A DNA stretch of 64,000 bases from Owenia fusiformis. Lineage: Eukaryota. The notes under the pieces were generated by a model. That model saw only the letters and a list, made by a program, of their open reading frames with translations. It was not told where the DNA came from and did not search any database. The position numbers and the translations under genes are program-made. Location of the stretch: NCBI GenBank assembly GCA_903813345.2, contig CAIIXF020000001.1, positions 17,794,001 to 17,858,000 on the forward strand. Reading direction: 5' to 3'. Position 1 is the first letter of the stretch. Every line of letters starts with the position of its first letter. Below are positions 42,719 through 62,900 of the stretch, piece after piece.

Positions 42719-43205
42719 CAGGGCTGTCAACTTGGGACCACCTAATATGAGTGACTTACAAATGTTGGACACCGAAGTCCAAATCTGAACACTTTTGTCC
42801 AAATTTTGAACACCTTTGGCCAACTTTTAAACACCTTTGGCCAAAGTTTGAGCACCTTTGCCTAAACTTTTATCACCTCAAATTTTTCGCGCTCGCTACA
42901 CTCGCGATGTCGTCAACAGGGGGGGGGGGGAGGTACGAAAATTTCCTATGAACATGCGTGACATATACGGGATTCGCGTGACAAATCCGAACAAATTGCG
43001 TTCGTTTTTTTCCGACGTTCGTATTTTTACCGTATCATAAACATATTTTGAAAAAAATTTTACAGAAACATATTTGCGTGACAATTACCAGGTAAAATGC
43101 GTATTTGCATGACATTTTGTGTCACGCAAAAAAAACTGGCGTGACTTCAAATTCTTCAGCAAATGCGTGACAAATACGCAAATTGCGGGACAGTTGACAG
43201 GCCTG
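42719..43205. mobile_element. hAT-like TIR element with 6-bp TSD (uninterrupted copy, inverted relative to 39715-41085)
   Basis: CAGGGCTGTCAAC ... GTTGACAGGCCTG with TSD CATTTA. Confidence 0.82.
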
Positions 43206-43397
43206 CATTTATATCTAGACTATGTGTCAGAATACAAATATTTAAATCTTATCTCACATGTACAACCGTATTTAACCTACAATCCAACAATTGACCTGAA
43301 ACCTCAATAGAAGTATGAGATCTAAATTTTATTAAAAATATTTTCTGTTTGTTTCAGTGAAAGTACAACTTGTGCTGATGACTTAAAGAGTGTTTAA

Positions 43398-46300
43398 ATG
43401 GACAGAACTGACATCATGGCTGAAGAAGAAAAGAGGCCCCTACTTAATGGCGACCCAGATGTTGCAGTAGAAACAGTCAATCCAGGATCAGTTGATGTCA
43501 ATAAACCACCTATCATAAAACTTTATAAACGGAGATGGTATATTTTGTTACTGTTCAGTTTTTTGACATTTACTCAAGGAGGAGTCTGGAACACATTTGG
43601 ACCAATCGCAGATTCAGCTGAAAGTGCATTTGGATGGAATGATGCAGATATAGCACTGTTGACAAATTGGGGCCCTATTACTTATGTCATTTCAACACTC
43701 TTCTTCTCTTGGCTCGTTGATGTAAAAGGTAAGACAATTTTGGTATAAGTATGTGACCAAAAGTATCACTACTTTAAAAGATGTAAATGAGATATAATCA
43801 TTTATTGGCCAGATAAAATGATGTGCCAGATTATCCATTATACCACATGCAAAATTCCTGGCAGTTCAGGAATTAAGGAGTACAGTAGTTTCAACCAACA
43901 ACAGCCAATCAAAAGTCATGTTATATATACGTGAGCTTGGGTACGAGAATATTTTCACGTTTCAACAAGTCAAGATGAAAAAGGCAGAAAATGTGGGGAA
44001 TTTGTAGGATTTCCACACTGATGAAATGTAAGTTCTATTCATGGGCAATCTAACAGGTGTCACAAATGTCTGGCTGGCCTATATGTCTGGGGTGTCGTAT
44101 CAAAACAAGCCTTCTATTAATTATTTTAAGCCTTCTATTAATTATTTTGTCTGGTCGATGGCTGGCGTCAGACGTCTATTTCAAGCACTGCGTGGATGAC
44201 TAATTTGAGAAAACAATTATTTATTTTTCTACCTTCAGATTGTTTCACCTACATGAAGTATAGGTGTCTCAAAAAAATGTACCCAAAAGTATATCATCAC
44301 CATTGACAAACCAATCAATATTTTCAGACTTTTTTTGCATGGTCTTGTAGATAAAAGATGAAAGTTTTTTCCCCTATACACAGTTTTTAATTCAGTTTTC
44401 TTTTGCCTTTTTGATACTTTAACCTGTTACCTTTTACACCACATACTGATAACTACATGATTATTCCAGGTTTAAGATGGGCCACTCTCATTACTGCAGC
44501 TCTGGTGTTCTTTGGAACAGGAATACGGTGTATCACATCAGACCCAGCACATGCAAAGTGGTAAGTAAAACTATAATAAACTTAGTTAGTAAACTAATAT
44601 AATTTAGTTTATTTGTCCAAGTTATGTTGAGTAGGCATATTAATTGCTTAAAATTTCAGCAAAATACTGAAACATTAAAATCTATAACTTGGGGCTTATC
44701 AAAATGCATGGATGTTAGAATACATGTACATGTACAGTACATGAAGTTAAGTTGATCATTTTCAATTTTTACTTTAAAATGCATAAATAAACATTGTTTG
44801 GTTAAAAATAATTTTGATAATTACATTTCCTATCTTTGTAAACTTGGGAATTGTTTACCAGAATGAAATATTGGAATATATCGAATAGTATATCAAACAC
44901 AATATACAATATAGGACGATGAACATTGGTGCAATACTCAATGGGTTAGCAGGTCCCATATGTATGGGAGGTCCACCTAAATTATCTCAGACATGGTTTC
45001 CATCGTACCAACGTACAACAGCCACAGCTATTGCTCTCAATTGTCTTGGTGACTCATTCCCATTTTTATTTGGTAATCCCCCGTGAAAGTTCTTTCACCT
45101 TGTCATCTAATGGCTTATCACCAGAATGCACTAAATGTGATAGTATACTGTATTTAAGAATACACTGTATTTCATGTAATTTATAATTCTGCATAATTAA
45201 TTTAACAGTTCATTTCTAATCCTAATGTCAGTGTTTTGAGTGAGAAACAGTGGAAACATCAATTCTTCACAAAACAAGGAATATTTAATTCAAAATGGTT
45301 GTCTTTAGGCTAATACATGTGGGTCACTTTCTAAATGGTCTCGGTGGACCCATTGCAATGGGAGGACCCCCAGCATTGTCAGCACATTGGTTCCCACCCC
45401 ATGAGAGAATTACTGCCACTGCTATTTCTCAGATCTGGAATGGCATGGGAGTGGGAGTTTCATTCATTATAGGTACACAATACAGCCTAAGCTGAACCAT
45501 GGGCTTTCAAGAAAGGCCCATGGCTGAACCTAGAAGTAGGCTAAAAATCTTTCATAGGCATTTCCTCCATTTTCACTAATATCATCCTTATACAACATGC
45601 ACGCCATATTTAACAACCATCCTGCATGCATATAGCTCAGTGATCTCCCCATCATTAAAGCAAATGGGTGCAGCACCCACCTGAGATTTTGAAAACAGGG
45701 TTGTACCCACCTGAAAATACATTTGCAACCACTTGAAAAAGACAAAAATCATGAAAAATTGGCATATTTGGTTGAGAAAAAATCCTGTTGAGAACAATGT
45801 AGCTGTTTTACAATCATTTAATATGATTTTCTGTTACATCATTTAGATTGTCAGCTTTCCAATGGTATGATGAACCACATAACTGCACAAATCTAAATAG
45901 AAATATTTAAGGCTGACCAAAATAACCTTGATTTCACATTGTTCTATTATTCTGACATGGGGTTAGAATTGTTACACTCATATTTTGTGAAACTTCTGGA
46001 CATTGAGACTAAGAATAGTTACCATGATATTATCTTCTGGTGTCCAAAACAAGGTCATCTGTATAATTATGTGTTCCAGACATGTAGTTTGGGTGTTCAA
46101 AATGTGTGATAGACATTCAAAATCGAATTGATGATAAGTTGAATTGAAAATCAATGAGAAAACTTTTTTGTTATAGGTTGATTCATTTGGGCCAGATATT
46201 GAATGGATTAACAGGCCCTATTGTAATGGGTGGCCCTCCTTCAATATCCATTGTGTGGTTCCCTCCCCATGAGAGAGTCACAGCAACAGCTATAGCAGTA

Positions 46301-49300
46301 GCATTGGGGTCTTCTGGTATAGCAACTGCATTTATTATAGGTGGGTTTGTGTTCAAGTTTCAGGCTTCATAATTAGTCCTTCTAATTTGCTTTTCCTTCC
46401 TATTTTCCTTGCCCTTGCTTGAGTACTTTGCCCAAGCAGTGTACCTGACTTTTTGGGGTTGTCGTTGTTGAGTTAGCCGAGCGGTCTTGAGCACTGAACA
46501 CACTAGGCTAGGTGATGTTGCCATAACCATGAGGTTGTGAGTTCAAGATGTGTGAGCTCCTTGCTTTTAATCATTTTAAAGTCTCCAGACCTCTGTCTGA
46601 TGGTTGGTTATTGTTTTTGGGATTTCTAGAAAAATCAAAGATGCAAATTCTAAGATCAAAGTCTTTAACCCCCAGTTGAATTAATAATATGTTAATTTAT
46701 AGGTTGATCCACTTGGGGCACATCTTGAATGGTCTCCCTGGTCCTATCTGTCAAGGGGGTCCACCTATCATCTCTATTGTGTGGTTTCCCCCACATGAGA
46801 GAACAACAGCCACTGCAATTGGCACGATATTTGGTATTGGTTTAGGAGTTGGTTCATCTTTTGTAATAGGTTAGTCATTGATGGTTGATCTCATTTGAAT
46901 AAACGTTACACCCTACATATGATGCTTCTCAACTGCTTTTGTGCATGACACTATTCCATGATTTCCAAATTATCATACACTACATGTACTTCACATGTAT
47001 GTCCATGCTCTGTATGTCCATTTTTAGGTAATGTTTCACTCAACACTGCAATTGGAGCACAGAAGCAGAAAAATTAAGGTCAATTTGTTAATACATTTTC
47101 TACAATGTGCAATTATCATTTGATCAAGATCTGACTATACGTACATAAGCATGAAAATATATGTTCATGTTGATAATCGCATCAGATTCTCCCAAATCCT
47201 CTGCGGTTTAATATCACATTGTAGCTATTGATTCTATTAACATATTGACTCTAAATGAAATAGTCCAAAGCAAAATGATCTGATTGGCATTTTGATGTAA
47301 TTCATAGGCTTATCAATCTTGGCCACGCACTTAATGGCTTTGCTGGACCAATAGTAATGGGTGCTCCTCCCGTCCTCTCTGTGACATGGTTTCCACCCCA
47401 CGAACGCACCACCGCCACTGCCATCTCTACAGTCTTTGGAGCAGGCTTTGGCACAGCTGTCTCATTTGTTATAGGTAGGTCCCTCTCCCTTGTTAGCTAT
47501 AAGGACATTATATAAGTGTGACATCATAGGGCAATCTTTTTTATAAATGTTGTACCATGAAAGCTATTGAAGAGCCATATAATCTAATTGTCTTAAAAGT
47601 TGGTTAGGACAAGATGGTAGCAGTATTCACTTTTGCCTATTGGGTTTCTTTTTATAAAATTCCAAGGGAATTCATTTGTCACAATTTTGGTAAAAAAATA
47701 GTCAAAAAATCGCTTGTGCAATTAATCATAAAATGCTCAGAACTTTTTGCCAGGGGACAGAACAATTCAAAAGCTTTCAAGAATCATGCCTTTGAGTACC
47801 CTGCACCTAGTATAGGAACTTTGTTTAAGAATTGCTTTATTTTAGCTTAGTCACAACACAAGATAGACACAGACAGAAAAGCACATACATGTCATGTAAT
47901 ATACCTATACGCGCTAACTTTTAACGTGCGAAATATTCTTATCTCCGCGTTGGAGAGTTCAGTTTCATGGTACAACTTTCTCAATATCCGGGCACTTTCC
48001 CATTGGAATAACATTGGCTGTGTTTTTCAATGACACATTGTGACTTTATTAGAGGTTTATCATGAATTATATTTGCACATACGATAGATATGATCATTAT
48101 AAAGACATTTGACAAGTTTTTTAAAAATATATTCACCAGAATCGTCAAAATCGTAAGTTTAAAATTCAAGTGACGTCACAGATTTCCCGGAAGTTGGTCA
48201 GTTCCCGGAACTTGCTCAGACGCCATAGAAAAAATAATCGAAGCAAATTGAATTTCCATCTTCTTTTCTAATTATTGTCTGGATTATAGAATATTATTAT
48301 ACATATGTACTAATGTTGGATCGGGATAATGCCTATGACGTTGTGTTTTGTGGACCAATAGAAAATTGTCCATGTTATCGTGTTGCATTGCGGGAAATAT
48401 TTATGTTAATGACCAGTAATTTCCTAACGCGAATAGGACTATTGTATAGGTATTCACATTAAGATTTATATTTTCTGAGCTAGAATGAAATAATTTTAGA
48501 TAATTTCCCATCTAATTTTTATTTTATTGCTGAGACTTTATAAAACCTTCAGAGTATCAAACTATCATCATGCTAAACCATGTAATCTCATTCTGCTCTT
48601 GTCTTCGGATCGATGCTTTGATAATTTGTGTTAGATTGATGGATCTGGCTGATTCCTAAATCCAGCAAAATTTATGTCTTTCATCTCAGTTCATACTTCA
48701 ATTTTAAATCAGAGCATGTTGCTAGCTGAAATATAGCAAAATTAGATAAAAATTGAAATGTTGCACTACATGTAAGTCAGTGTAATTATGCTTATGCCAA
48801 CTTTATTCATATTCTTTAGGTCCTTTGCTAGTAAGAGAGCTTACAAACAATACATTGGACAATAGTACAACTGGCATGTAAGTACACTTGGTTTATCTTT
48901 TATTTTCTCAATTTTTTGGGAGATTTAGATTTACCAAGAGTTTAGGTAGATAGCTTGTGAACTAATTTCTTTTGCGTAGTCTTGTCATTATCCAACCTAA
49001 CGAAGTTCGAGGGGGATATAGGAAAGCCATTCAAATTTTATATAATGATGCTTAGAGATAAACGAGGTCTAGCTGCTCAAGATGAAAATTCAAGATGGCA
49101 ACTTATTGTTTGTCTCAATATATGTTTTGTTTGGTGGGATTTGCTACTCAGTGGAGTTGCTGTTTTTCTAGCTGTTCCAGATTTTCTACTATTTATACCA
49201 TCGACTTGATATACTTAATATGTTTCATTGTTTTCTCTTTTACAGGCTGCACAATATCACAAATCATACAAGTAAGTCAAAAATATTGGAATACTGAATA

Positions 49301-52300
49301 TTGGAAGTTTCAACGAAACCAATAAAGAATGATATTCAAAGTGTAGACATAAGTGTTCACTTCACTGAAATTATATGTCCTAAAGCATGTATCTAAAGAA
49401 CTTGAAGTTTTCACAAAGTGTGTTCATTGAATGTTGGTATAGAAGAATGATCATTGAATGTAGCTTTTTATCATGATAAATAGTGTTCATTAAAAATAGC
49501 TAAATGTAATCAGTGACAACAGAATGCAGCCGATGAACACTCTATGTAAATTAACAATGTAGTTATATTTGGAGGTCTGAGAAATAGTACTGTTACGAAT
49601 TGTATTTACGTGAAGTCATCCATAATTTTACTTACAGATACAGAAGAAGTGAATGCTCAAAGGCAAGACATCATGAAACTCATGTACATAGGTAAGGTCA
49701 ATGGACTCAGATGAATCTTACATGCAGATTAATTAGCATATGGAATACCCAACTTTTCTGTCCATCTGTTCATCTTCTGGTCAGTTTGTGATTCTGTCCC
49801 AACATCTGTCTGTCTGTCAACAATTTATGAACAAATGTCAGATCTAAAGCTCATATCCATTTTATTGGGATCCATACTGGCTAGTTCTGCTACTTTTGCC
49901 TCATTTTGAACAAATTCATTTATCATATAATACATACAGGGTGCCTCGAAAATATGGGACCTTTTAAAGCAGTTTAGAAGAGTTTCCCTGGAGTATCTAC
50001 CCTCAGCGTTCCCCTTTCCAACTCAATATCCATCTGACCCAAAAAGTATCGCTGCTGTTAGATGGCATGGGAGGACACATTTGACTAGTGATTTGGTGTA
50101 AAATTTGGGCCAAACACCAAATTTTTAAATGTCTGTAATCTTTTCACATTTGAGGCTTGAACCATGATACTTGGCGAATCAATGTAACTTTGGATAAGTT
50201 TTAAAATGATATATGACACATACTATGAAGACACTAGTATATGTCTGCCTAGGGGGGGGGCATACTTTTGGGACACCCTGTTTATTACATTTTTACAACA
50301 CTTTTAAAAAGAATGTAAAAATTTCCCCAACAGATCAGTGACTTATGCAAATGACTGAATGATTATTGTCATTTTGTATTTCAGAGTTCGGATTCATGGC
50401 AGTCTTGATGTTGTTGATTTTGATATATTTTCCTGCCAAACCGCCATCTCCGCCCAGTATATCAGCTGCCACTGAAAGGATGGAGTTTAAGAAAGGACTC
50501 TCTGCTTTGCTCAAGTGAGTATTGTAATTGTATGACTTATGTAATATTTGACTTGTACATGGATGATAAAGAAAAATTAGCTTATTGAATAAGCTGTACT
50601 ACATGCATGTATATGACATTGTATTATATTTACATGTATTACATACCTAGCGAAGCATTTGTATGGAAGTCAATGGGAAAGTTAGCGAGCTATATCCACC
50701 GATATTGCCCGATTACCCCGATATAGCCCGCTTACCTCGTTTTGATATTAGATTTCTTTAATAACCATGATAATATCATGACGTCACGTCATTGATACAA
50801 AGTAACCATGGGAACAAAGGCATGTAATACATCAGTTATGTCACTATGACGTGAAATATGCCTTCGTTCTTGCCCAAATATAGAGCCTCCCAAGGTCGGC
50901 CTATATTGGGAGAACTCAGGCATATTTCACGTCATAGTGACATAACCTCTAAGTATATAGTAATGATACTTTCTTGATTCATTTAATTCATCCTCCAAAT
51001 GTTCAAGACATCATCAAGAAAAAGATTAAACCACTAAATTGGCGTACATTGTAATCGTACCTGATGTACTATCAAAATGTGATACACAATTCTTTTTTCA
51101 AATTTGCTTTTGAAGGATTTTTGTCCCAAGAATTGTAAACTCATTTGAAATTAAATTTTGGTTGGCACATGCATGCATTGATTTATTCAATAATATGAAT
51201 TTTATATCATGAAGTAATCTGCACCATAAGAGCATATATCCTTATATAATTTGTGTGGAAATCTCTTTCGCAGAAAGTTGATCAGGAGAAAAATACATTT
51301 TAGGATTTTAGTTCTCGTTGTAGTCTATTGTCAACCTATTGGCACAGAAATATATTAAATATGAGAAGTGCTTTTCAAAAATGTATCAAACAATTTGTTA
51401 AAGGCATGGCAAATAATATTTGAATGATTAGATTAACGATATTTTGATATTTTATAAAGGCCTTAAGAACATGTAAAAATAATGATCAATGTGGTTCATT
51501 AATCCAGAATTCTAGAATTATATAGAATTATTTTGGAAATTTCAAAAGAGTTCCCAATTAAAAAGGCTAAATGCTGTTTACAAATAGGAAACTATAGCAG
51601 AATCAACAAAAGTTTTGTGAAAAAATTAGGATAAGGTTTCAAAATTATGCACAGGACAATATATAACTACTTAATGCAGGCAGGGACTTTTAATTGCCAA
51701 AAAGTTGAGTATCAAAAAGAATTGGTATCTATTTTAGTTTGTCGTCTGAACTAACTTCATTTATGAACAATGTTGAATCACATTTGTTAATTGATATTAC
51801 CATTAGACAGTAAGACACCCAATTTTTTATTCATTATTCCTTATACTGTTATATGATATAAAACCTATATAGAAACATCTACAATGAAAAATATTTTCAT
51901 TTTGTACTATACTAGGATTAAACCTCTTAACAGGATATTTAACATACATGTACATATATGGGTTATTTCAAGATTATATTTCAAGATTATTCAAACTTAT
52001 TGATTCCATTCATTGAGATTTGCTAATCTATAGAATTACCATTTTCCTCTTTTGTGAAGGGTTATTGCATAAAGTTAAGCTGCAAATAATCCATCCAAAT
52101 AGTAGATCTAAATTTCTTCATTTATATGAACATAGATGTTAAGTTTTAAACTTTGGGAAACTTTTAGAAAAACCATGGGCTTTCAATAGAAGATCTGACT
52201 CGCTCAAGTATTGCTAGTGAGTGTTAATAAAATAAAGCTGTTACGCTGCAGATTAATTTCAGGATATTAGTTGACATAACAGAAGACGGTAGAGGTTTTT

Positions 52301-55300
52301 ACTTATAAACACAAATTTTAAACACTTTTATTAAGTACACAGTTGAAGTATCTCATGGAACAATGGGTAGATGGAAGAAAAGACAATGTGGATTAATCTC
52401 TCTAGCTCTTTTTACTAATGCTATATTTATGATTTATGTCATATCTTACACAAGCAGAACAACGGAAATATATTCAACATTTACGAATGATGGTCACTGT
52501 AGTACTAAAGGTTTGGCAAAGTTACCAGATTCAACAAATCGTAGGAATATAACAAAAATCGTGATTTTCACATACTGGAGAAGTGGATCAACTTTCGTCT
52601 CTGAATTATTTTCGCAGCATCCAGATGTGTTTTACATGTATGAGCCACTGCGTGCTTGTGACTGCTCAAAACACTGCGATCATCCCAAAGACAATACCAT
52701 AATACAAAATGCATACATAAAAGACATATTGAATTGTGATTTCGATAACAATGATTTTCTGTCAAGGTTAAAAGATCATAAAGAATTCAAATGGGAAGTA
52801 ACTTTTCGTGGTGTTGATGACTTTGAAAGTATTCCACACCAGTGTGCCAGTAAAAAGATAAAAGCGATAAAAGTAATCCGTGCAGAGTCATTGGAGCGTG
52901 TTGCTGGTGTTCTAGGCAGTGACACTGCTTTGTTCTTCTTGACCAGAGATCCTAGGGGTGTACTGAATTCGAGGAAACAGTTTCCTTATATATATATGAA
53001 TATGGCTGGCAAAGTTAGAGACATGAACGAATTGTGCAAGAAGCATTTAGCAAATTATGAATTTCTGCAGGGACTCACCAGAAAATCAGCATCTCAATTA
53101 CGTAATATGCCATTGATAAAACTGATTCAGTATGAACACATTGCTCATGATCCATTAGGAAATGCAAAGGAGTTGTATGAGTTTATTAATATTCCATTTC
53201 ATGATGGAGTTGCTGATTGGATAAAGAAAAATACAGTGTCAGGACGTGACTCTAGCCCTTTTGGCACTAAACGCAATTCAAAGAAGGTCTCAAACAAATG
53301 GCAGAATGAATTAACGAAGAGAGAAATGCATATGGTTCATAGTATCAACGATTGTGCCAGAGTCATTGAATTTTTAGGAAAACGATAATTGGCAGTACAA
53401 TGAAATAAGAAAATAACTGGATTTTGTATTCAGTAGGAGACTGCAAAATTTTTATAGTGATATTGAATTCTTGTAACATTAAGACAACATATATTGTATA
53501 GACAATGTTGAACATGATGCAATTAACATACTGTACTCATTTGTCAAACATCTATTCTACAATTAGACAAAATTATACAAATGAATTCTTTGCGAAAAGT
53601 GAATTTAGTCTTTGTAAAAATCCCACTGCTCATGAAGAAGTCAAAAAAGAAAAAAATAATTTGTATTTTCAATATCAAAGCAGTTATGAAATATTTTATT
53701 CTTAAAATATGTTTTGTTTCATCAATAAAATGGAAAATGCTGATTGTTGGATCCTTTGATTGATTCCTTTGATAACAGAGTATAATTGAGCAATAGTTAT
53801 GTAAACAGTAAATGAACTAATGCAAAGCAAAGACAGCAGCGACTTGAAAAGAAGGTACTGAAATTGTGTAAAAAAAATCAATCGGTATGTTAATACATTT
53901 TTAATGAATAGAAGAAAGATATTCAAATGTTCAGAATTTTGAAATTTATAAATGTGTCTGTGAGTGTTAAATGTTTTAACTATACAGGATGGTCCAAAAA
54001 ATTGGAACATTTGTTAATTGAACGCAAAACCTTTATTTTTCTTCTAAAATGTACCAAACTTTTACTGAGCATAGTTCAATCACTTATATATCTGAAAATA
54101 AAGTTTATAGGTGAAAACCACAAAGTTAATGCATTGAACTAGTCAATGTTTGATAGGACCCTCTTTTCTTAAATATACACTTGTCAATTCCGCGGCTACT
54201 TTTTCAAGTATCATTTATTTCAAAGCTTTAATGCACATGTTAATTGCTATAAATATTTTATAAAATCATATTCAGTTGACAAAGGGTATTTACATCTGGG
54301 GTTTGCCAGAAAAAAATTGTGTTAACTTAAACAAAACCCAAAATGATCATTTTCATTTAAGAGTAGGGAAGAAGGAACATGTCAGAGGTGCAATTGCATA
54401 ACCCTCACAGCTACTCAAGTGACAAAAGAATTGTTCCCACTTTTCAGTAAAGGGAAAACTGACCAGTTATTCACAAAGTTTTATTAAAAACCAACGCTAA
54501 TAGCGAGATCAATAGTGCAAAAATAGTTCATTCATGGAACGAAGCGTGAAACTTTCCACATATCATCAGAATACCATTCCCTTTGATTTAAGAGCCAGAG
54601 CCATTTTTGTGGTCCACTAGAATGATCAAAAAATAGTAAGTACCCCCTCCCACCAAATCCCATGGGGTGGGGAGATATCGAAATATTTTTTTCATAAAAA
54701 AATTTCTTTGAATATGGTCATACTACAGTTTTAGAGTGCTATTTTCATGGTAAAGAAATTTTGAAAACATAACAAGATGATTTATCATCGATTTTCATCA
54801 TTGTTAAAGACTAATCATGGGCGACGCCCACTTTTCATACCTTGAACATTTAGGTTATTAAATCTCTATCATGGGTTGAACAAATGAATGTAATTCAGTT
54901 TTCTGGATAACACCAGATACCTTTTTGATGTAAGGTGCTATAATTAATCTTTGCATTTGACTTCTTAAAGGCTTAGACCATATATATATATATATATCTT
55001 TTATTGACTCTTTAGATGTCATATCATGACATATTAGTCACTAAGGTAGAGCAGATCTTCCCATTGTCGAGTTGAAGAACTGGTATCTTTATCCTGGCTA
55101 GAACCATAGACAATTCTAGCCAGTGCCAGCCTTTTATCGAGTTAGCAGCACTCTAGTAATCGCGGTATAGGTCAGCAGTCATAGGTCAAAGACAAATCAC
55201 AAGAAGTGCGGTGACATATCACACCCCTGTTTAGAAGAAGAAAGCAAGCAACAAATGTCCCAGATCTACAACATGTATCCACTATTCTATGTACATGTAT

Positions 55301-58300
55301 GTCGAGTCTCTATACTCTCCTTGAGAGAACCTATGCTACAGACACAACTGTCCAGAATTTAGATGATGATGTGCTTAAACAGTTTGATGAATGGTGTGCT
55401 GACCAAGTGCCTAAACAGTTTGATGAATGCCGTGCTGACCAACAGAAAGTACCAGTCTTCAAGCTTTGGTTTCTGATTATTCAAATTGAAATACTGTGCC
55501 TTGACTATGTGAGGGCTATAGGACAGGAGAATTTTCCTCTCCAGATGGTTTCTCTTTAATTTTCATAGTTGTTCAGGGGTTTCAATAAGCACAGGCGGGT
55601 GGCGAAAACGCCTGTTCAAATCTCAATTACGCCTGTTCAAATATGTAGAAATAAAATTCACTGTTACTTACCTTACCCTAAGTTATTTTAAGTGAAATAA
55701 GTTTCAGCCTGTTGAAATTGCCAAAAAGCCTGTTGAAAAAATATTTATTGAAACCCCTGGTTGTTAAAGACTAGTCATGGGCGACGCCCACTTTTCATAT
55801 GCTGAACTTTAGGCTATTAAACCTCTTTCATGGGTTGAACCAGAACCAGAAGGGCAGCCACAGTCACAGCCTGCAGTCTCTAAATTCTCAAGAAAGCCTA
55901 TACTACATATACAGCTGTCCAGAATCTAGATAATGAAGTGATAAACAGTTTGATGAAAGATGTGCTGACCAACAGAATGTACCAGTCTTTAGTTTTGGTT
56001 TCAGATTATTTGAATCGAAATACTGTGCCTTAACAAAGTGTAGGCTATTAGAGAGGGAAATTTTTCTCTTTATCTCCAGTCAATTAGCAAGCTTATCACC
56101 TGGTTTTTCGTTTTTTGACCTTGTCAATATGCTTGCTGAGTACCAGTTCAGTATATCATCAGAACTCAAAAGTTCAAAAATGGATAGCTTTTGGAAAAGT
56201 AAAAAATTAGAAATACCTCACTTCCCATGAAATTGCAGCTGCCCTTTGACATGGTAGGACTATGTGTCTCCCCTTATTTCATGCTCCCACAGGTTCAGAC
56301 ACTACACCAGCAAAGGCTGGAAAAATGATTTGGGTGCCATTGTAGAAAACATTGCCCCAAGCTTCAGATGCATGCCAAACGCTAGTAAAATGCAGGGATT
56401 GTAATGGACATGACACCTACCTCAGTGATACTGATAATAGAGTGTTGAAGTGCTTAAATGCACAAAATAGGTAAATTTCCTATCCATAATAGAAGACTCA
56501 TTAACCTGTATATTAACATGTTCATAAAGTGGGCGTCGCCCTCGGTCAAGCTTTAATAATGAATATCCATGAGAAATACGGAGGATGCAATCTTGAAAAT
56601 TGATTTTAAACACTGAAAATAACATACTAAAAATGAATATAGATCATATTAAAAAAGAAATCAACAAAAAATACTTCCCTCCCCCTCCCCCCAGGATTTG
56701 ATGGGAGGGGGCATTTGCAATTTTTCAGATATCATCACTACACCATTCCCTTTGATTTAAGAGCCAGGGCCATTTTTGTGGTTCACTAGAATGACAAAAA
56801 AGCACTTGCATCTTTTTGTTGAGCACTGTTGTTTGCAGCTGCATTTTACTAGCATTTGGCATGCATCTGAAGCTTGGGCAATGTTTTCAATACTGGCACC
56901 CAAATTATTTTCCCAGCCTTTGTGGTAATGGATTCCCAACTCAATTGTGAGGGTGAAGTAAGGACTGACATAGGTATAATTGTCTGGAACCAACTTATGC
57001 AACTTATGGTGGGATGTTCTCAATTTGAGTTGTTTTCTTTGTGAACATTTCTCGTCTTGCAGCATTTACAGTTATTTCATTGTTGTCTCTATTGTATAAA
57101 ATCACAACAAAACGTTCAATGATTGGAATCCAGATATAGTGTCTGAACCTGTTGGGGCAAGAAATAAGGGGAGACACATAGTCCTACCATGTCAAAGGGC
57201 AGCTGCAATTTCATGGGAAGTGAGATATCTCTAATTTTTTACTTTTCCAAAAGCTATCCATTTTTGAACTTTGAGTTCTGATGATATACTGAACTGGTAC
57301 TCAGCAAACATATTGACAGGGTCAAAAAACAAAAAAACAGGTGATAAGATTGCTCATTGACTGGAGATAAAGAGGGAAATTGCCCTCTCTGATAGCACAT
57401 ACTTAGTTAAGGCACAGTATTTCGATTCAAATAATCGGAAACCAAAACTTAGGTACATTCTGTTGGTCAGCACACCATTCGTCAAACTGTTTTTCACTTC
57501 ATTATCTAGATTCTGGACAGCTGTATATGTAGTATAGGCTCTCTTGAGAATTTAGAGACTGCAGGCTGTGACTGTGGCGGCCCTTCTGAATGGTTCAACC
57601 CATGAAAGAGGTTTAATAGCCTAAATATTCACTGATACTGGTACATTCTGTTGCTCAGCACACCATTCATCAAACTGTTTAGGCACTGGGTCAGCACACC
57701 ATTCATCAAACTGTTTAAGCACATCATGATCTAAATTCTGGAAAGTTGTATCTGTAGAATAGGTTCTCTTCAGGAGAAAATAGACTCGACATACATGTAC
57801 ATAGAATAGTGGATACATGTTGTAGATCTGGGACATTTGTTGCTTGCTTTCTTCTTCTAAACAGGGTTGTGATGTGGTGTAAGCCTTTAAAAAGTCAAAT
57901 GCTAAGATTAATTATAGCACCTAACATCAAAAAAGGTATCTGGTGTTATCCAGAAAACTGAATTACATTCATTTGTTCAACCCATGATAGAGATTTGATA
58001 ACCTAAATGTTCAAGGTATGAAAAGTGGGCGTCGCCCATGATTAGTCTTTAACAATGATGGAAATCAATGATAAATCATCTTGTTATGTTTGCAAAATTT
58101 CTTTACCATGAAAATAGCACTCTAAAACTGTAGTATGACCATATTCAAAGAAATTTTTTTATGAAAAAAATATTCCTATATCTCCCCACCCCCATGGGAT
58201 TTGGTGGGAGGGGGTACTTACTATTTTTTGACCATTCTAGTGGACCACAAAAATGGCTCTGGCTCTTAAATCAAAGGGAATGGTATTCTGATGATATGTG

Positions 58301-61300
58301 GAAAGTTTCATGCTTCGTTCCATGAATGAACTATTTGCCTGTTTTCTTGCACTATTGATCTCGCTATAAGCACATATACAGTGTATAATATATATAATAT
58401 ACCATTTGTGTTCTGGGAGACTCCTCTATGATATTGATAGACATATTGATATTTCCAATGAATATTATTCATATCAGAACAATAAGGGGGGGGGGGGGCG
58501 TCATTTACTAGTCAAATCAGACTGCCCCGACCTCTTTCTGGAGAACTATTGAATCAGTAGAACACCTAACAATAGCCATCAAAAGATGCTTGATACTCAT
58601 GAATTTTGGTAAAAAATGTTGAATAATGTTACTAGATTTGATCTTCCAATGAAACAAATAGGAAGTTTGATCAAGCTGAAATTTTTAATTAAGATGGCTT
58701 GGACAAAACAAACGAACAGCAAACTAATTGAATATTTACATATCTGAGCCACAGGCTTCAACTTGTAGGTCAGGAGAAGAGGGGTCATATCAAATATCGT
58801 CTAGTTTAATTCATTAACTTTGTGGTTTTCACCTATAAACTTTACATCAGATAAATAAGTGATTGAACTATGCTCAGTAAAAGTTTGGTACATTTTAGAA
58901 GAAAAATAAAGGTTTTGCGTTCAATTAACAAATGTTCCAATTTTTTTGGATCACCCTGTATATAGGTTTTCATGTGATAAGGGCATTATCACATGATGGA
59001 GAGTGTGATACATCAAATATCACCTCTTGGAAAAATATCGCACTTTGTTTTCCTTGAGCTGATAATTCAATATTTCACACTCTCCCTCATATAATAATGC
59101 TATTATATTTGATAAACTATTTGCATAAGATTCAATGTCATTTTTTTTTATCATACTATATATTTTTGTCTGTTATCAGTAAAGAAAGCCATATGGTCTG
59201 ATATAAGGTATGTTTGCTTTTTGATGGGGAATTGGGTCAAATTTTTATCTTAGTTAAAAGTTTTATATTTCATTCTTAGGTGTAGTCAGAAGATCTTCAA
59301 TTTTATCTGCTTTTATCTTTCAAGAGCCCAATTCGCTATAATTTAGACATCTCTTCAAAACATGTACTACATTGAAGATCACAAATATTGTACTGTCTTT
59401 TTGATTTTGCCTTTGATACTCCTAAATGGTTACTCAAATGCTTGAATTGGTAGAAATTCTAATATGCTGTATTCTCTCTAATGGGCGCACAGTGCGGTTT
59501 CCAAATTGAAATTTAAAAGGGTATGGTAATTAGAGATTCTCGTAAGTGCACATACAAAAGAAATATTGCTGATAGCCTCTTTAGTTGTTATCACTTACAT
59601 GTAGGTTTACATTCTCCTGTATTTCTTTCTCTGCATTAAATATAATCATCAATCAATATCTTGTTGTCTAAATAATTGAAACTATCTAAAACACGGGTTA
59701 TACTGCAACGATAGACATATAACCTACCTTATACAAACTAGTCAAAATCTAGGCCAACATTCACATCACCACAATAAACCATTCTTCAAAAGAGAGCAGA
59801 AAGATCATACATGTATTAAAGAACCAAACAATCTCACGCCAACCTAAATGCATTTAATTTTTCTGTGTGCTCACTAGAGAGAATCCAGTCCCAGTCTTAA
59901 ATTTTCTGCAAATCAAGGGTAGAGTAAATGGCTTAAAATATTTTTCAAATGTTCATTTAAGTTTTCCAATCCATTGTCCAATTGACCTACGGGGGAGGGG
60001 GTACTCCAATATATCGGCTTTATTGGGACGAGCCGCTAAAGTGGGTCACTTTTTCAGCAATAAATCCCTACATGTGAGTCCCATTTTGAAGAAGAACACC
60101 TAGATATGTGTCCTATTTTGATGAAAAAATCCCTAGATTGGGCATGGGTATACTTTTAAAAAATCAACAGAAGTGAGTCTTATTTTTTTTAAATTACCTC
60201 AAAGTGGGTCTACTACTAAGAAAAACCCTAGATGTGGGTCCAATGTTAGAGAAAAAATCTCTAGATTTGGGTAGATATTGAATTGAATATATATATATCT
60301 CAGCGGCACCCTCTTATACAAAAGGTTGACTAGTGCCCCCCCCCCTTCCCTCCCCTGGGAGTTGACCAAATCTGCAAATGTTTGATGAATATGCTACTTT
60401 TTCTTTAAAATAGCTTGTTGGACATGTTATATATTAATATATTTGATTTTTTCATCAGTTTACCTTAATTATCCAAACGAATGAAGTTTGGTAGGAATAT
60501 TAAGACCAAAAACTAGAAAAATACTTAGCAACTACACTTCTGCAATGATTTAAATTCCACTTAACCTATCTTAAATGTCTGTGTATTGTATGTTTTATTA
60601 TAAATTTTGTATGTTGTATCAGACATTGGCCATTCTGGCTGGTAGCAGCACCCTATGCCATAGCTGGAGGCGTGTACAACTGCTGGAGCTCAGTGATAGA
60701 TGTAAACTTAAAGCCACTGGGCATCAAACAGGTAGGCTACCAATAAATGAACAAATGCCTCATGTAAAAACATGGTGAACTCGTCAATTCCAAGTATGTT
60801 AATTTCAGTTGCTCGGGGAGGCTCCCATAATAGCGTGAAAAGCATGATATCTAATGGGAGAGATTAAATTTGGTACAATTCTTATAAGAATGCCTCTGTT
60901 CCACAAGATTTAAATTTTGTTCTGATAAATAACAAAAAGAGAATCAGTGGTTCGATTACAAAATATTGCTGAATTTTAATGAAATGCAACCAAATTATCA
61001 ATGGTTGAAATACATATTGTTACATGTAACACAATGGTTGATGTGATGGTTGTTGATGGTTTGAATCCAAACATTAAAGCTTGTTTTTTTCTTGAGTGCA
61101 TACTGTAGGAATCATATTCTCTGAGTTACATTTACTCATATTTCAATGTAACACTACAGGAAAGATCACAAGGACAGACTAAGAATATTAAAAATTCATA
61201 CCTGTGAACTAATTTACTGTAAATTGCTTTAATTTGATGCTATTTAATTTTGGTGGATTGGGCAAATTTTGGTTGCTATTTAATAAGGCTTATCGGGCCA

Positions 61301-62852
61301 TCATCAATTGTATTATTCACTTTACAACTCCCCACCAATAACGCATTTTATCTCTCGGTATCAGATTGTTGTATCTAAACCAGCAGGATTCTGTAGGTCT
61401 TTGGAAATAGTTTAAAATTGACATTTTATCCATAATCCAGTCAAGATTTCACCAACATTTTTATCGTGCAATGTGACACATGATAAAGGTACGGGGCGAA
61501 AATCCCTAGGAATTTCATTTTATAAAAATTGCCGGAGACTTAATTTGGTAGTTTTTATAGATCAGCCAAATCCACCAAATTATAAGCACCCGTCAAATTA
61601 AAGCAATTTTATGATTTACAGTATTTGATGGGAAGGTTTACACATTTATATGGATTTACGCCCTAACAGCAGCCACTATCAATATCTTCACAATTTTTTG
61701 CAGTTTTAAGATTTTAATTCTTACCAAAGTAATTAGTATTAGTGTGATTGTTAACATTTCTCCCAAGTTACTTCTGCTGACCCCATGGGAAAATAATGGG
61801 GGGTGAAATAAAAATCAATGATTGCCACTCAGCTTAGATCTGATTTTTGTCAAAATGTCTTAATAGGCAAATGCATGTATGTATTTCATTGTTTTGACAG
61901 AGTGCAACCTGATAACTTTAATACTGGGGGATCACTAGAATATATGTGTCATGGAATAATAATTTTAAAAAATGACAATGATACAGTATATGTATGTCTT
62001 TCAGACGGAGGCTGGCTGGATCGGCTTCTATGCAACAATGGCAGGGAGTGCTGTGTCCCTTTGTGTGGCCAGGTAAATATTGCCATGTATGCTCAATACA
62101 TATACACCATTCATTCATTATTCTTACAACACTTTGGCTATAAGCAAAAAATCAGCAACTTTCCATACTAAAGAAAGAAGCCTTTGATATGAATATTTAT
62201 GGTGTATTTTTGTTTTTTCAGATTTGCAGATGTGTTTTCCGGTCGCATGAAGACACTGTTGATCTGCCTGTATTTCTGCGCTGTTGGAGCCATGGCCTGG
62301 TTCCTTCTGCTATGCAATCAGTACATTCCATTCAACACACGTGAGGAACAACTTGTATTTTATTTGTAGTAATATAATATCATTATTGCTAGAGTCATTG
62401 TACTTAGTCGTAATCTATTCTGAGACAAGAAATATTTCACTCTATGCAGGGCAATACTTAATAAATAAAAAAAAATCACAGTACATGGGTTTGAAAAAAA
62501 TGTTCAAGTAGATTTCAGGTAAGTGTTAAGAATTCTGCTTAATTATAATTTGGCTACAAAACAAATATTTTTTCCACAACACACATTATCATCGTCCCCA
62601 TAGAGCAAGTTATTGAATTACAGTAAATACATACATGTATTGAAGCTCACCATGTAACTTTGATTCCAGCATCTTTGTACATATCTACAATCATGGTGGG
62701 TGTGTTTATAATGGCGGCCACTCCTTTGTTTTATGAGCTGTGTTGTGAATTGAGTTACCCTATAGCTGAGGGGATCACTAACCTATTCCTCACCATGTTG
62801 AATAATGTCACTGGACTCATATTTCTACTAGTCTTTATGATTCCACATGTTG
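43398..62852 (+). CDS. SLC49A4: Lysosomal MFS transporter SLC49A4 (DIRC2, FLVCR-related); last exon lies beyond the window
   Basis: Exons 43398-43728, 44470-44560, one of five alternative exons in 44915-47474, 48820-48877, 49246-49271, 49638-49691, 50385-50514, 60623-60731, 62005-62072, 62222-62340, 62670-62852. Motifs: dileucine EKRPLL, YKRRWYILLLFS, WNTFGPI, WFPxxERxTATAI, YFPAKPPSPPS, PLFYELCCELSYPIAEG. Confidence 0.9.
44915..45072 (+). CDS. SLC49A4: SLC49A4 alternative TM4-TM5 exon, variant A (158 nt)
   Basis: AG/GT bounded, open in frame: TMNIGAILNGLAGPICMGGPPKLSQTWFPSYQRTTATAIALNCLGDSFPFLF. Acceptor lacks a pyrimidine tract. Confidence 0.7.
45309..45472 (+). CDS. SLC49A4: SLC49A4 alternative TM4-TM5 exon, variant B (164 nt)
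   Basis: AG/GT bounded: LIHVGHFLNGLGGPIAMGGPPALSAHWFPPHERITATAISQIWNGMGVGVSFII. Confidence 0.85.
46177..46340 (+). CDS. SLC49A4: SLC49A4 alternative TM4-TM5 exon, variant C (164 nt)
   Basis: AG/GT bounded: LIHLGQILNGLTGPIVMGGPPSISIVWFPPHERVTATAIAVALGSSGIATAFII. Confidence 0.85.
46462..46550 (+). mobile_element. tRNA-derived SINE head remnant
   Basis: A-box-like GTTAGCCGAGCGGTCT and B-box-like GAGTTCAAG. No complete cloverleaf. Confidence 0.45.
46703..46869 (+). CDS. SLC49A4: SLC49A4 alternative TM4-TM5 exon, variant D (167 nt)
   Basis: AG/GT bounded: LIHLGHILNGLPGPICQGGPPIISIVWFPPHERTTATAIGTIFGIGLGVGSSFVI. Confidence 0.85.
47308..47474 (+). CDS. SLC49A4: SLC49A4 alternative TM4-TM5 exon, variant E (167 nt; absent from the ORF track)
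   Basis: AG/GT bounded: LINLGHALNGFAGPIVMGAPPVLSVTWFPPHERTTATAISTVFGAGFGTAVSFVI. Confidence 0.85.
49937..50280. mobile_element. Deleted copy of the 8747-9321 MITE family
   Basis: Shares the long arm sequence and the CAGGGTG...CACCCTG ends. Confidence 0.7.
50835..50946. repeat. Hairpin (about 28-bp inverted repeat), probably part of an interspersed repeat
   Basis: GTTATGTCACTATGACGTGAAATATGCC / GGCATATTTCACGTCATAGTGACATAAC. Confidence 0.7.
52363..53388 (+). CDS. Golgi carbohydrate 6-O-sulfotransferase (CHST1/GlcNAc6ST family), single-exon CDS nested in an SLC49A4 intron
   Basis: 341-aa ORF with a type II N-terminal TM segment, 5'-PSB [24 protein letters not shown], 3'-PB [10 protein letters not shown] and YEHIAHDP. 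Confidence 0.9.
   Translation: [341 protein letters not shown]
54501..58366. mobile_element. Academ-like DNA transposon derivative, largely palindromic, with transposase remnants
   Basis: TAGCGAGATC...GATCTCGCTA termini, 3-bp TSD TAA, and very long inverted arms. Decayed transposase-like peptides: FKLWFLIIQIEILCLDYVRAI..ENF, HEIAAAL..LPLFHAPTGSDTT, and ACQMLVKCSCKQQCSTKRCKC. Confidence 0.72.
55574..55759. mobile_element. Small hAT-like MITE with 6-bp TSD
   Basis: CAGGGGTTTCAATAA / TTATTGAAACCCCTG with TSD GTTGTT. Confidence 0.78.
61215..61623. mobile_element. TA-flanked MITE (copy 1)
   Basis: TACTGTAAATTGCTTTAATTT ... AAATTAAAGCAAT...TACAGTA. Homologue at 62901-63243. Confidence 0.65.
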
Positions 62853-62900
62853 GTAAGTGTAAGCATGTACTATATATCACTTGATACTTAATACAGTGTA

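Follow-up and report, generated by a model that had tools for sequence, protein, structure and literature searches.

Mutually exclusive clusters of tandem homologous exons are well known in general. Among vertebrate genes, SLC25A3, CACNA1C and the SCN genes provide further substitutions of tandem duplicated exons, and pairing between docking sites and selector RNA is known for Dscam and others. According to the available part of PMC9741552, SLC12A1 contains a three-way cassette of duplicated exons, and swaps of membrane helices of transport proteins by tandem duplicated exons are mostly ancient, recurrent and enriched in ion transport genes. Metazoan muscle myosin heavy chain genes also carry mutually exclusive exon clusters, as stated in an excerpt of PMC3912159. 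Here, we analyzed a window of 64,000 nucleotides (the whole stretch of DNA under study) from contig CAIIXF020000001.1 of the annelid Owenia fusiformis, which contains an SLC49A4 (DIRC2)-like gene with five tandem homologous exons (variants A to E) between its exon 2 and the exon starting at position 48820. We consider it reasonably likely, though well short of certain, that one of the five is spliced into each message between these two exons, and that A, B, C and D are used as well, either weakly or in tissues, stages or conditions outside the RNA sample.

To our knowledge, pyridoxine is the only known substrate of SLC49A4, and the human SLC49A4 gene is not known to contain an exon cassette. 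In human DIRC2, the sequence ERQPLL at residues 10–15 acts as a lysosomal sorting motif, and a change of LL to AA sends the protein to the plasma membrane (excerpt of PMC9719028). For the transporters FLVCR1 and FLVCR2, the accessible part of PMC11168923 describes a cavity formed between transmembrane helices (TM) 4/5 and 10/11, and a choline site lined by TM1, 2, 4, 5, 7 and 11. Q214 in TM4 of FLVCR1 binds the substrate hydroxyl and shapes selectivity, and R200 and S203, which sit in TM4b of FLVCR2, keep the inner gate locked against TM11 (same excerpt).

The five exons proposed by the initial annotation were recovered by sequence reading and translation, in tandem between the exon end at 44560 and the exon start at 48820. 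Each has AG before it, GT after it and a single open frame (offset 1), and the lengths of A to E (158, 164, 164, 167 and 167 nucleotides, nt) are all 2 modulo 3. The first base of every variant is a G that finishes the Trp codon from exon 2, and the last base opens a Gly codon finished by the exon at 48820. When frames were built from the coordinates, single inclusion was open for all variants (5 of 5; 239–242 codons built), and the build containing E equals the annotated protein sequence. The earlier claim that skipping all variants, or including two or three, breaks the frame also held, and extends further: whether no variant is included or two to five of them in any of the 26 possible combinations, translation reaches a stop no more than 71 codons from the cluster start (27 of 27 patterns). 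Inclusion of four variants restores the downstream frame by arithmetic, but the second variant is then read out of frame and runs into a stop. This architecture allows one variant only per open message.

A repeat search groups A to E as one family with 64–70% identity across the first 67 nt, and the pairwise DNA identity is 54–63%. Homology among the copies ends at the splice sites, so that the introns are unrelated; those separating the variants are 236–704 nt long, and all sites are GT-AG without U12-type donors. The conserved core peptide described initially is confirmed, as the five variants agree in 22 of 55 columns and A has QR where the others have ER. When the annotated protein was compared with the whole window by tblastn, none of the other exons covering residues 1–446 had a duplicate, as had been claimed; residues past 446 fall beyond or near the window end.

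Exon E matches 100% with P0001, an unnamed Owenia fusiformis protein product of 495 amino acids, which carries the Pfam domain MFS_1 (PF07690, precomputed). Of the exon peptides alone, three of five match MFS_1 positions 90–139 of 347, under the curated cut-off. Among the best 120 of 261 homologous proteins (E-value ≤ 1e-20), the nearest relatives that bear a name are designated SLC49A4 or DIRC2 homologues, and no vertebrate sequence is present. Owenia itself contains at least three paralogues (P0001, P0026 and P0088). A phmmer search against PDB chains found five sequences, all FLVCR1 or FLVCR2 (FLVCR1 E-value 1.1e-28), and no solved structure of SLC49A4 was among the chains searched. An AlphaFold2 model built from a 49-protein alignment reached a predicted local distance difference test score (pLDDT) of 87.4 and a predicted template modelling score (pTM) of 0.86. 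Its 12 best Foldseek matches listed from PDB are all FLVCR1/2 (E-value 8e-19 to 2e-16), with TM-scores up to 0.93 by target length at 22–24% identity over the structural alignments. Judged by homologue names, MFS_1 and the FLVCR matches in sequence and fold, the gene is an SLC49A4/DIRC2-like MFS transporter gene, in agreement with the initial assignment.

The model has helices at residues 46–64, 71–78, 82–109, 112–129, 136–152, 154–159, 161–168, 171–200 and 219–257, followed by more. Set against these, cassette residues 141–197 correspond to most of TM4, a kinked TM4b, a short cytosolic loop and TM5, and the helix map thus upholds the earlier assignment of the exon to a TM4–TM5 hairpin. Each variant would supply this whole unit, with WFPPHER-TATA as the cytosolic loop. 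Near the N-terminus, P0001 contains EKRPLL at residues 11–16, and PLL is the majority consensus there in the 49-protein alignment; this conserved ExxPLL motif suggests a lysosomal location. By analogy with SLC49A4, the Owenia protein may transport pyridoxine.

The variants are old. Their pairwise amino-acid identity is 50–69%, and identity at third codon positions is only 27–38%, which means that silent sites are saturated. Among variant pairs, the nonsynonymous divergence (dN) is 0.26–0.50, and the synonymous divergence (dS) is 1.7–3.8 in 4 of 10 pairs, the other 6 being saturated and not computable. In the four computable pairs, dN/dS is 0.09–0.25, well short of 1, including 0.235 for A versus C and 0.223 for A versus D, where neither partner is E. 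All 8 nearly invariant positions of the block in the 49-protein alignment (G151, S165, W168, F169, R174, T178, A179 and F194) are kept in all five variants. Such old copies, which retain frame, splice sites, phase and every family-critical residue, have evolved under purifying selection. From the above, the view of the array as old copies kept by selection is well founded, given saturated silent sites, low dN/dS and unrelated introns.

The same exon is swapped in molluscs. We examined the 90%-identity clusters of 30 homologues and aligned their members. Among the first ten clusters (closest matches with isoform names), five contain same-species isoforms that differ solely in the block aligned to residues 142–196; the second ten gave no clean swap, and the third ten (one of them single-member) no swap within a cluster. 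P0253 and P0140 of Patella caerulea, which carry the same locus tag and fall into separate clusters, have 22 differences, all in residues 163–210. Altogether, isoforms were compared pair by pair within nine mollusc species (Magallana gigas, M. angulata, Patella vulgata, P. caerulea, Haliotis rubra, H. asinina, H. rufescens, H. cracherodii and Gigantopelta aegis), and in 13 of 13 pairs the differences were confined to one span of at most 54 residues. The edges of the swapped block coincide with the Owenia exon edges, and the swapping proteins are 46–53% identical to P0001, among the closest of the best 120 of 261 homologues. Since the differences between these isoforms are limited to a block of exon size, the exon serves as a swap cassette in a second phylum too, and at the level of annotated sequences this is the strongest support for function. 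The cassette swap is already implicit in mollusc RefSeq isoforms. Searches of the full-text literature, paper supplements and most subscription journals aside, returned no description of such a cassette for SLC49A4, DIRC2, FLVCR, MFS, Owenia or lophotrochozoans, so the statement that it had not been described for SLC49A4 holds for the literature searched, with the swapped isoforms already deposited in RefSeq.

Mussels and scallops show no swap among cluster members, and several of their paralogous genes share a contig or chromosome. Among the Mytilus and scallop homologues, P0014, P0016, P0222 and P0223 lie on one contig and P0002, P0216 and P0217 on one contig, and the Pecten homologues P0003, P0008, P0082 and P0241 are on one chromosome. 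This pattern fits a replacement of exon duplication by gene duplication.

A search for sequencing runs listed 15, and none of those found to contain the sequence is recorded as RNA. RNA evidence in Owenia came from four of the 15: X13, X14 and X15, which are three RNA-seq runs of one study picked by species label and used as raw reads (about 6–12% of each run read), and X9, used as contigs. A 645-nt contig spliced across three exons indicates that X9 contains RNA-derived sequence. A joint was counted when at least 3 reads from 2 starts, or a contig, supported it. The joints counted (Table 1) place E between its flanking exons, and they set the start of exon 2 (44470) and the end of the downstream exon (48877). 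E is the default variant in the sampled RNA and makes up at least roughly nine tenths of X13 messages. For variant C, about 112 bases were found in X13, and X9 contains a 170-nt contig (46176–46345) over C at depth 3.9, whose ends lie within 1 and 5 nt of the exon edges and which has no junction; for comparison, the contig ending in E has depth 9.6 and the downstream contig 16.3. The unique intron bins beside C are empty in X9. This C-sized contig is suggestive of inclusion of C, which may be a minor form in one sample. Variant A has depths of 0.11, 1.15 and 0.18 across three 211-nt bins in X13, about 304 bases in sum, which come from one 2 × 151 read pair that also lies on both flanking introns and therefore looks unspliced.

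Table 1. Exons, cassette variants and counted splice joints of the SLC49A4-like gene (positions in the window)
Feature	Position	Strand	Evidence
Exon 1: start codon, EKRPLL dileucine-type motif, TM1, TM2	43398..43728	+	tblastn, P0001 residues 1–111, 100%; joint 43728 to 44470 in 4 of 4 runs
Constitutive exon 2 (91 nt): TM3 and start of TM4, ends in TG of Trp codon	44470..44560	+	RNA joints, helix map
Variant A (158 nt): most divergent, QR not ER, TM5 shorter by three residues, donor 5/8	44915..45072	+	translation
Variant B (164 nt): PPALSAHWF signature in common with one Haliotis variant, donor 5/8	45309..45472	+	translation
Variant C (164 nt): donor 6/8	46177..46340	+	translation
Variant D (167 nt): donor 7/8	46703..46869	+	translation
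Variant E (167 nt): annotated variant, sole one seen spliced, donor 7/8	47308..47474	+	100% to P0001; RNA joints
Constitutive exon (58 nt): end of TM5 and start of N-glycosylation-rich luminal loop	48820..48877	+	tblastn, RNA joints
Constitutive micro-exon (26 nt)	49246..49271	+	joints 48877 to 49246 and 49271 to 49638 in 4 of 4 runs
Constitutive exon, end approximate	49638..49690	+	tblastn, RNA joint
Later exons	near 50384–50515, 60620–60731, 62002–62073, 62220–62339, 62672–62854	+	tblastn alone
Joint	43728 to 44470		X13 32, X14 15, X15 8 reads; X9 1 contig
Joint, exon 2 to E	44560 to 47308		X13 29, X14 17, X15 11 reads; X9 1 contig
Joint, E to next exon	47474 to 48820		X13 27, X14 20, X15 11 reads; X9 1 contig
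Joint	48877 to 49246		X13 20, X14 19, X15 6 reads; X9 1 contig
Joint	49271 to 49638		X13 21, X14 16, X15 5 reads; X9 1 contig

Several intronic stretches (44224–44434, 45490–45911, 47811–48443 and 49077–49287) also have RNA depth, on both strands and with many mismatches and loose ends, and their summed word depth reaches about 540 in X9. In this they resemble dispersed repeats, or pieces of transposons transcribed at other loci, and not exons of this gene. In exons 1 and 2, the RNA reads depart from the assembly at several single bases (43399–43511 and 44513). These differences reach intermediate to high frequencies, such as 31 of 39 X13 reads for T>C at position 44513, and are probably polymorphisms between individuals. 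The intron of about 10 kb at 50516–60611 is much longer than the other introns of the gene.

Messages with early stops are generally cleared by nonsense-mediated decay. Exclusivity could therefore follow from the frame rule, with messages holding no variant or several variants being removed by this decay, and a bias to the stronger splice sites of E would add to it. Counted against the consensus AG/GTAAGT, the donors of A to E match at 5, 5, 6, 7 and 7 of 8 positions, and those of the neighbouring constitutive exons at 7 of 8. These ranks would accord with E as default and with A and B needing activation. Steric hindrance is unlikely and was rejected because the inter-variant introns measure 236–704 nt, and U2/U12 incompatibility was rejected from the splice-site types given above.

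Searching for RNA pairing, we scanned about 325 windows, and with the best 30-nt docking window (44690–44719, upstream intron) all four inter-variant introns reached −18.6 kcal/mol or better. A coarser scan gave an observed value of −18.3, past all 25 of 25 shuffles (best −17.2), and its summed energy was equalled or exceeded by 7 of the 25. Natural control windows reached the worst-target value of the docking window in 1 of 300 and 5 of 300 cases. Two inverted repeats, I3 (44727–44747/46979–46999, 86%) and I10 (44733–44752/45164–45183, 75%), which share a palindromic ACATGTA-rich site, were rejected as evidence of pairing, as the duplex scans do not convincingly exceed controls. A direct repeat of 24 nt that precedes both C and D (46086–46109 in the B–C intron and 46532–46555; 83% identity) was also rejected as a pairing element, since the cluster contains no sequence complementary to it; with three mismatches allowed, its core motif occurs no more often than chance predicts (12 times against a mean of 7.7, with 12 attained in 9 of 100 shuffles).

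The C–D intron contains a tRNA-like stretch at 46455–46560 (GTTAGCCGAGCGGTCT ... GAGTTCAAGAT), the 3′ part of which is the portion repeated upstream of exon C (83%). ARAGORN called no tRNA in 43000–51000, this stretch included. It may be a remnant of a short interspersed nuclear element (SINE) or a relic of a C/D duplication unit.

A number of results weigh against the use of all five variants, and the chief weakness is that four of them were not seen spliced. In none of the four runs did a joint involving A, B, C or D pass the threshold, compared with 57 exon 2-to-E reads in the three raw-read runs. Of the junctions expected to every variant, one per transcript, those to E were thus found (57 reads and a contig) and those to A–D were not; likewise, the proposal of one locus making up to five transporters goes beyond these runs, in which E alone is joined to the flanking exons. 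Variant B has no coverage at all in the four runs, and the few bases on D in X15 and X13 exceed the exon content of their bins and spill into the intron like unspliced RNA. Pairing between docking and selector RNA is not convincingly above controls in duplex scans, shuffles and natural windows. No Owenia protein or fragment with A–D was found: the search with E for longer proteins gave 5 matches, of which P0001 is the sole Owenia one, and the sequence cluster of P0001 has one member. Shorter proteins compared with P0001 residues 105–245 gave 7 matches (best identity 64%), none from Owenia. A five-variant profile searched against 1.84 billion representatives hit 1574 proteins at E-value ≤ 0.001, and among the best 150 of them, of which 144 were new and compared, no carrier of A–D was found (top identity to any variant 0.70). 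On the mollusc side, the isoforms are automated RefSeq models, and three full-length transcript-derived oyster proteins (497–498 amino acids; among 15 members listed) all have the X1 variant. Because a single study supplied three of the four runs, the sampling of tissues and stages is narrow, and the absent A–D junctions lower the claim and do not refute it.

These results suit the alternative that only E is functional now and that A–D are negligible copies, or copies used in the past, on their way to decay: every joint counted goes to E, the annotation uses E, the weakest donors (5/8) sit on A and B, and TM5 of A is odd, being shorter and containing Asp and Pro. However, silent sites are saturated and A–D still keep the open frame, AG/GT, the length of 2 modulo 3 and all 8 near-invariant residues; dN/dS is 0.22–0.24 for A versus C and A versus D, without E; and the annotations of nine mollusc species treat the orthologous cassette as alternative, next to the C-sized contig in X9. 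We regard decay of A–D as improbable, although it keeps an appreciable share of the probability. The early stops in 27 of 27 non-single patterns would also allow a regulatory role, in which a second inclusion or skipping leads to a degraded message and tunes the transporter level. Poison exons need no conserved protein, yet these retain 50–69% identity and every family-invariant residue, and no double-inclusion joint such as D to E reached the threshold in the four runs, which makes such a role very unlikely. That the array is an assembly artefact, from collapsed or expanded haplotypes or misjoined paralogues, has a negligible probability. No point was found for it, the copies are only 54–63% identical in DNA with unrelated introns, 53–74% of sampled words of the 2.56-kb stretch are present in five sequencing runs, and RNA reads and contigs splice across the region precisely at the predicted sites. 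In summary, the cluster is real and is probably a functional mutually exclusive set.

To figure out what the swap may change, we compared the variants with FLVCR. In the phmmer alignment, Q214 of FLVCR1 aligns with the invariant G154, so that the binding chemistry in Owenia would differ; the adjoining residue 153 is A, G, T, P and A in variants A to E. The gate positions of FLVCR2 align with residues 163 (K, A, S, I, V) and 166 (Q, A, I, I, V). In each of the five species sets compared, TM5 (181–196) varies more than any other segment of the cassette; on average, a column there varies in 3.94 of 5 sets versus 2.0–2.4 elsewhere. The variants would therefore keep the scaffold (Gly/Pro kinks, S165, WF, R174 and TATA) and re-tailor TM5, the middle of TM4 and the TM4b gate positions, and such helices would alter the substrate preference or the gating of a lysosomal exporter. 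Different cavity walls among the variants, as initially proposed, are what the FLVCR structures would lead us to expect.

The origin of the cluster was approached with a tree of 52 cassette peptides over 54 columns, which is mostly unresolved. One scenario is a cassette invented in an ancestral lophotrochozoan before the annelid–mollusc split with at least two variant lineages, one of them a B type with PPALSAHWF, and kept for more than half a billion years for the substrate or gating specificities of one lysosomal exporter; mussels and scallops would have moved this diversity to tandem genes, and Owenia, with five variants here and the P0026 cassette, would be the richest known case. We hold this as a tentative and rather doubtful scenario. 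Independent origin of the annelid and mollusc clusters, by repeated duplication of the same exon, has a chance only slightly below even. It is consistent with the low resolution of the tree, with the weak grouping of C, D and E (87/67) and with the pairing of Crassostrea X1 and X2 (98/95), and the approximately unbiased (AU) test rejects neither a clade of all five Owenia variants (p = 0.31) nor one of B–E (p = 0.44). However, Owenia B clusters with one Haliotis variant (94/84), both having PPALSAHWF where the other Owenia variants differ, and the boundaries of the swapped block are identical in both phyla.

Other relatives show related arrangements. The Owenia paralogue P0026 (543 amino acids, on another chromosome-scale contig) contains two cassette copies in one frame at about residues 140–250, which suggests a second duplicated cassette fused by annotation, and the unnamed protein P0254 likewise reads through two cassette copies. 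Isoforms P0175 and P0173 of Littorina saxatilis have a partial extra copy of the TM4 half, followed by low-complexity sequence, ahead of the normal cassette; this is probably a duplicated exon partly taken in by the gene model. In the hemichordate Ptychodera flava, P0023 (X2) and P0146 (X1), both of 505 amino acids, show 17 differences, all within P0023 residues 298–330. This equal-length swap corresponds to P0001 residues 287–319, a different exon from the TM4–TM5 cassette.

Mutually exclusive cassettes are natural helix-swap experiments, here with TM4/TM4b/TM5 as the unit, and the main value of this locus is a natural helix-swap series in a poorly understood family of lysosomal transporters. 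If the variants are expressed, one locus would give up to five transporters differing only in TM4/TM4b/TM5. Exon-level and gene-level duplication can also be compared within one family, with cassettes in oysters, limpets, abalones and Owenia and tandem genes in mussels and scallops. Moreover, the cassette poses an annotation problem, as one isoform is given for the Owenia gene and P0026 reads two cassette copies through.

Compared with known systems, the Owenia cluster resembles Dscam1 (exons 4, 6 and 9), Mhc, MRP/ABCC and 14-3-3 zeta in having tandem homologous exons of similar length and phase from which one is chosen, and it shares with arthropod clusters and muscle myosin heavy chain the contrast between an exon cluster and whole-gene duplicates as the alternative. 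Unlike the arthropod clusters, it is small, docking/selector pairing was not found convincingly above controls, and only E is seen spliced. The vertebrate SLC12A1-type cassettes also swap a homologous membrane-helix exon in a transport protein, whereas the Owenia gene belongs to MFS/SLC49, has five copies and would encode a lysosomal exporter of organic solutes. FLVCR1 and FLVCR2 are the nearest solved structures, in which the cassette spans the helices with the substrate-binding glutamine and the TM4b gate, although identity over the structural alignments is only 22–24%. Human DIRC2/SLC49A4 shares E-x-x-P-L-L at almost the same place (E10RQPL14L15 in human, E11KRPL15L16 in Owenia), a glycosylation-rich loop past TM5 and, by the names of the nearest homologues, membership of the SLC49 family, whereas the family is expanded to at least three paralogues (P0001, P0026 and P0088) in Owenia. 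Finally, the molluscan SLC49A4 homologues (RefSeq X1–X3) belong to the same family and swap the same exon between isoforms of equal or near-equal length, with two or three annotated variants in molluscs compared with five genomic copies in Owenia.

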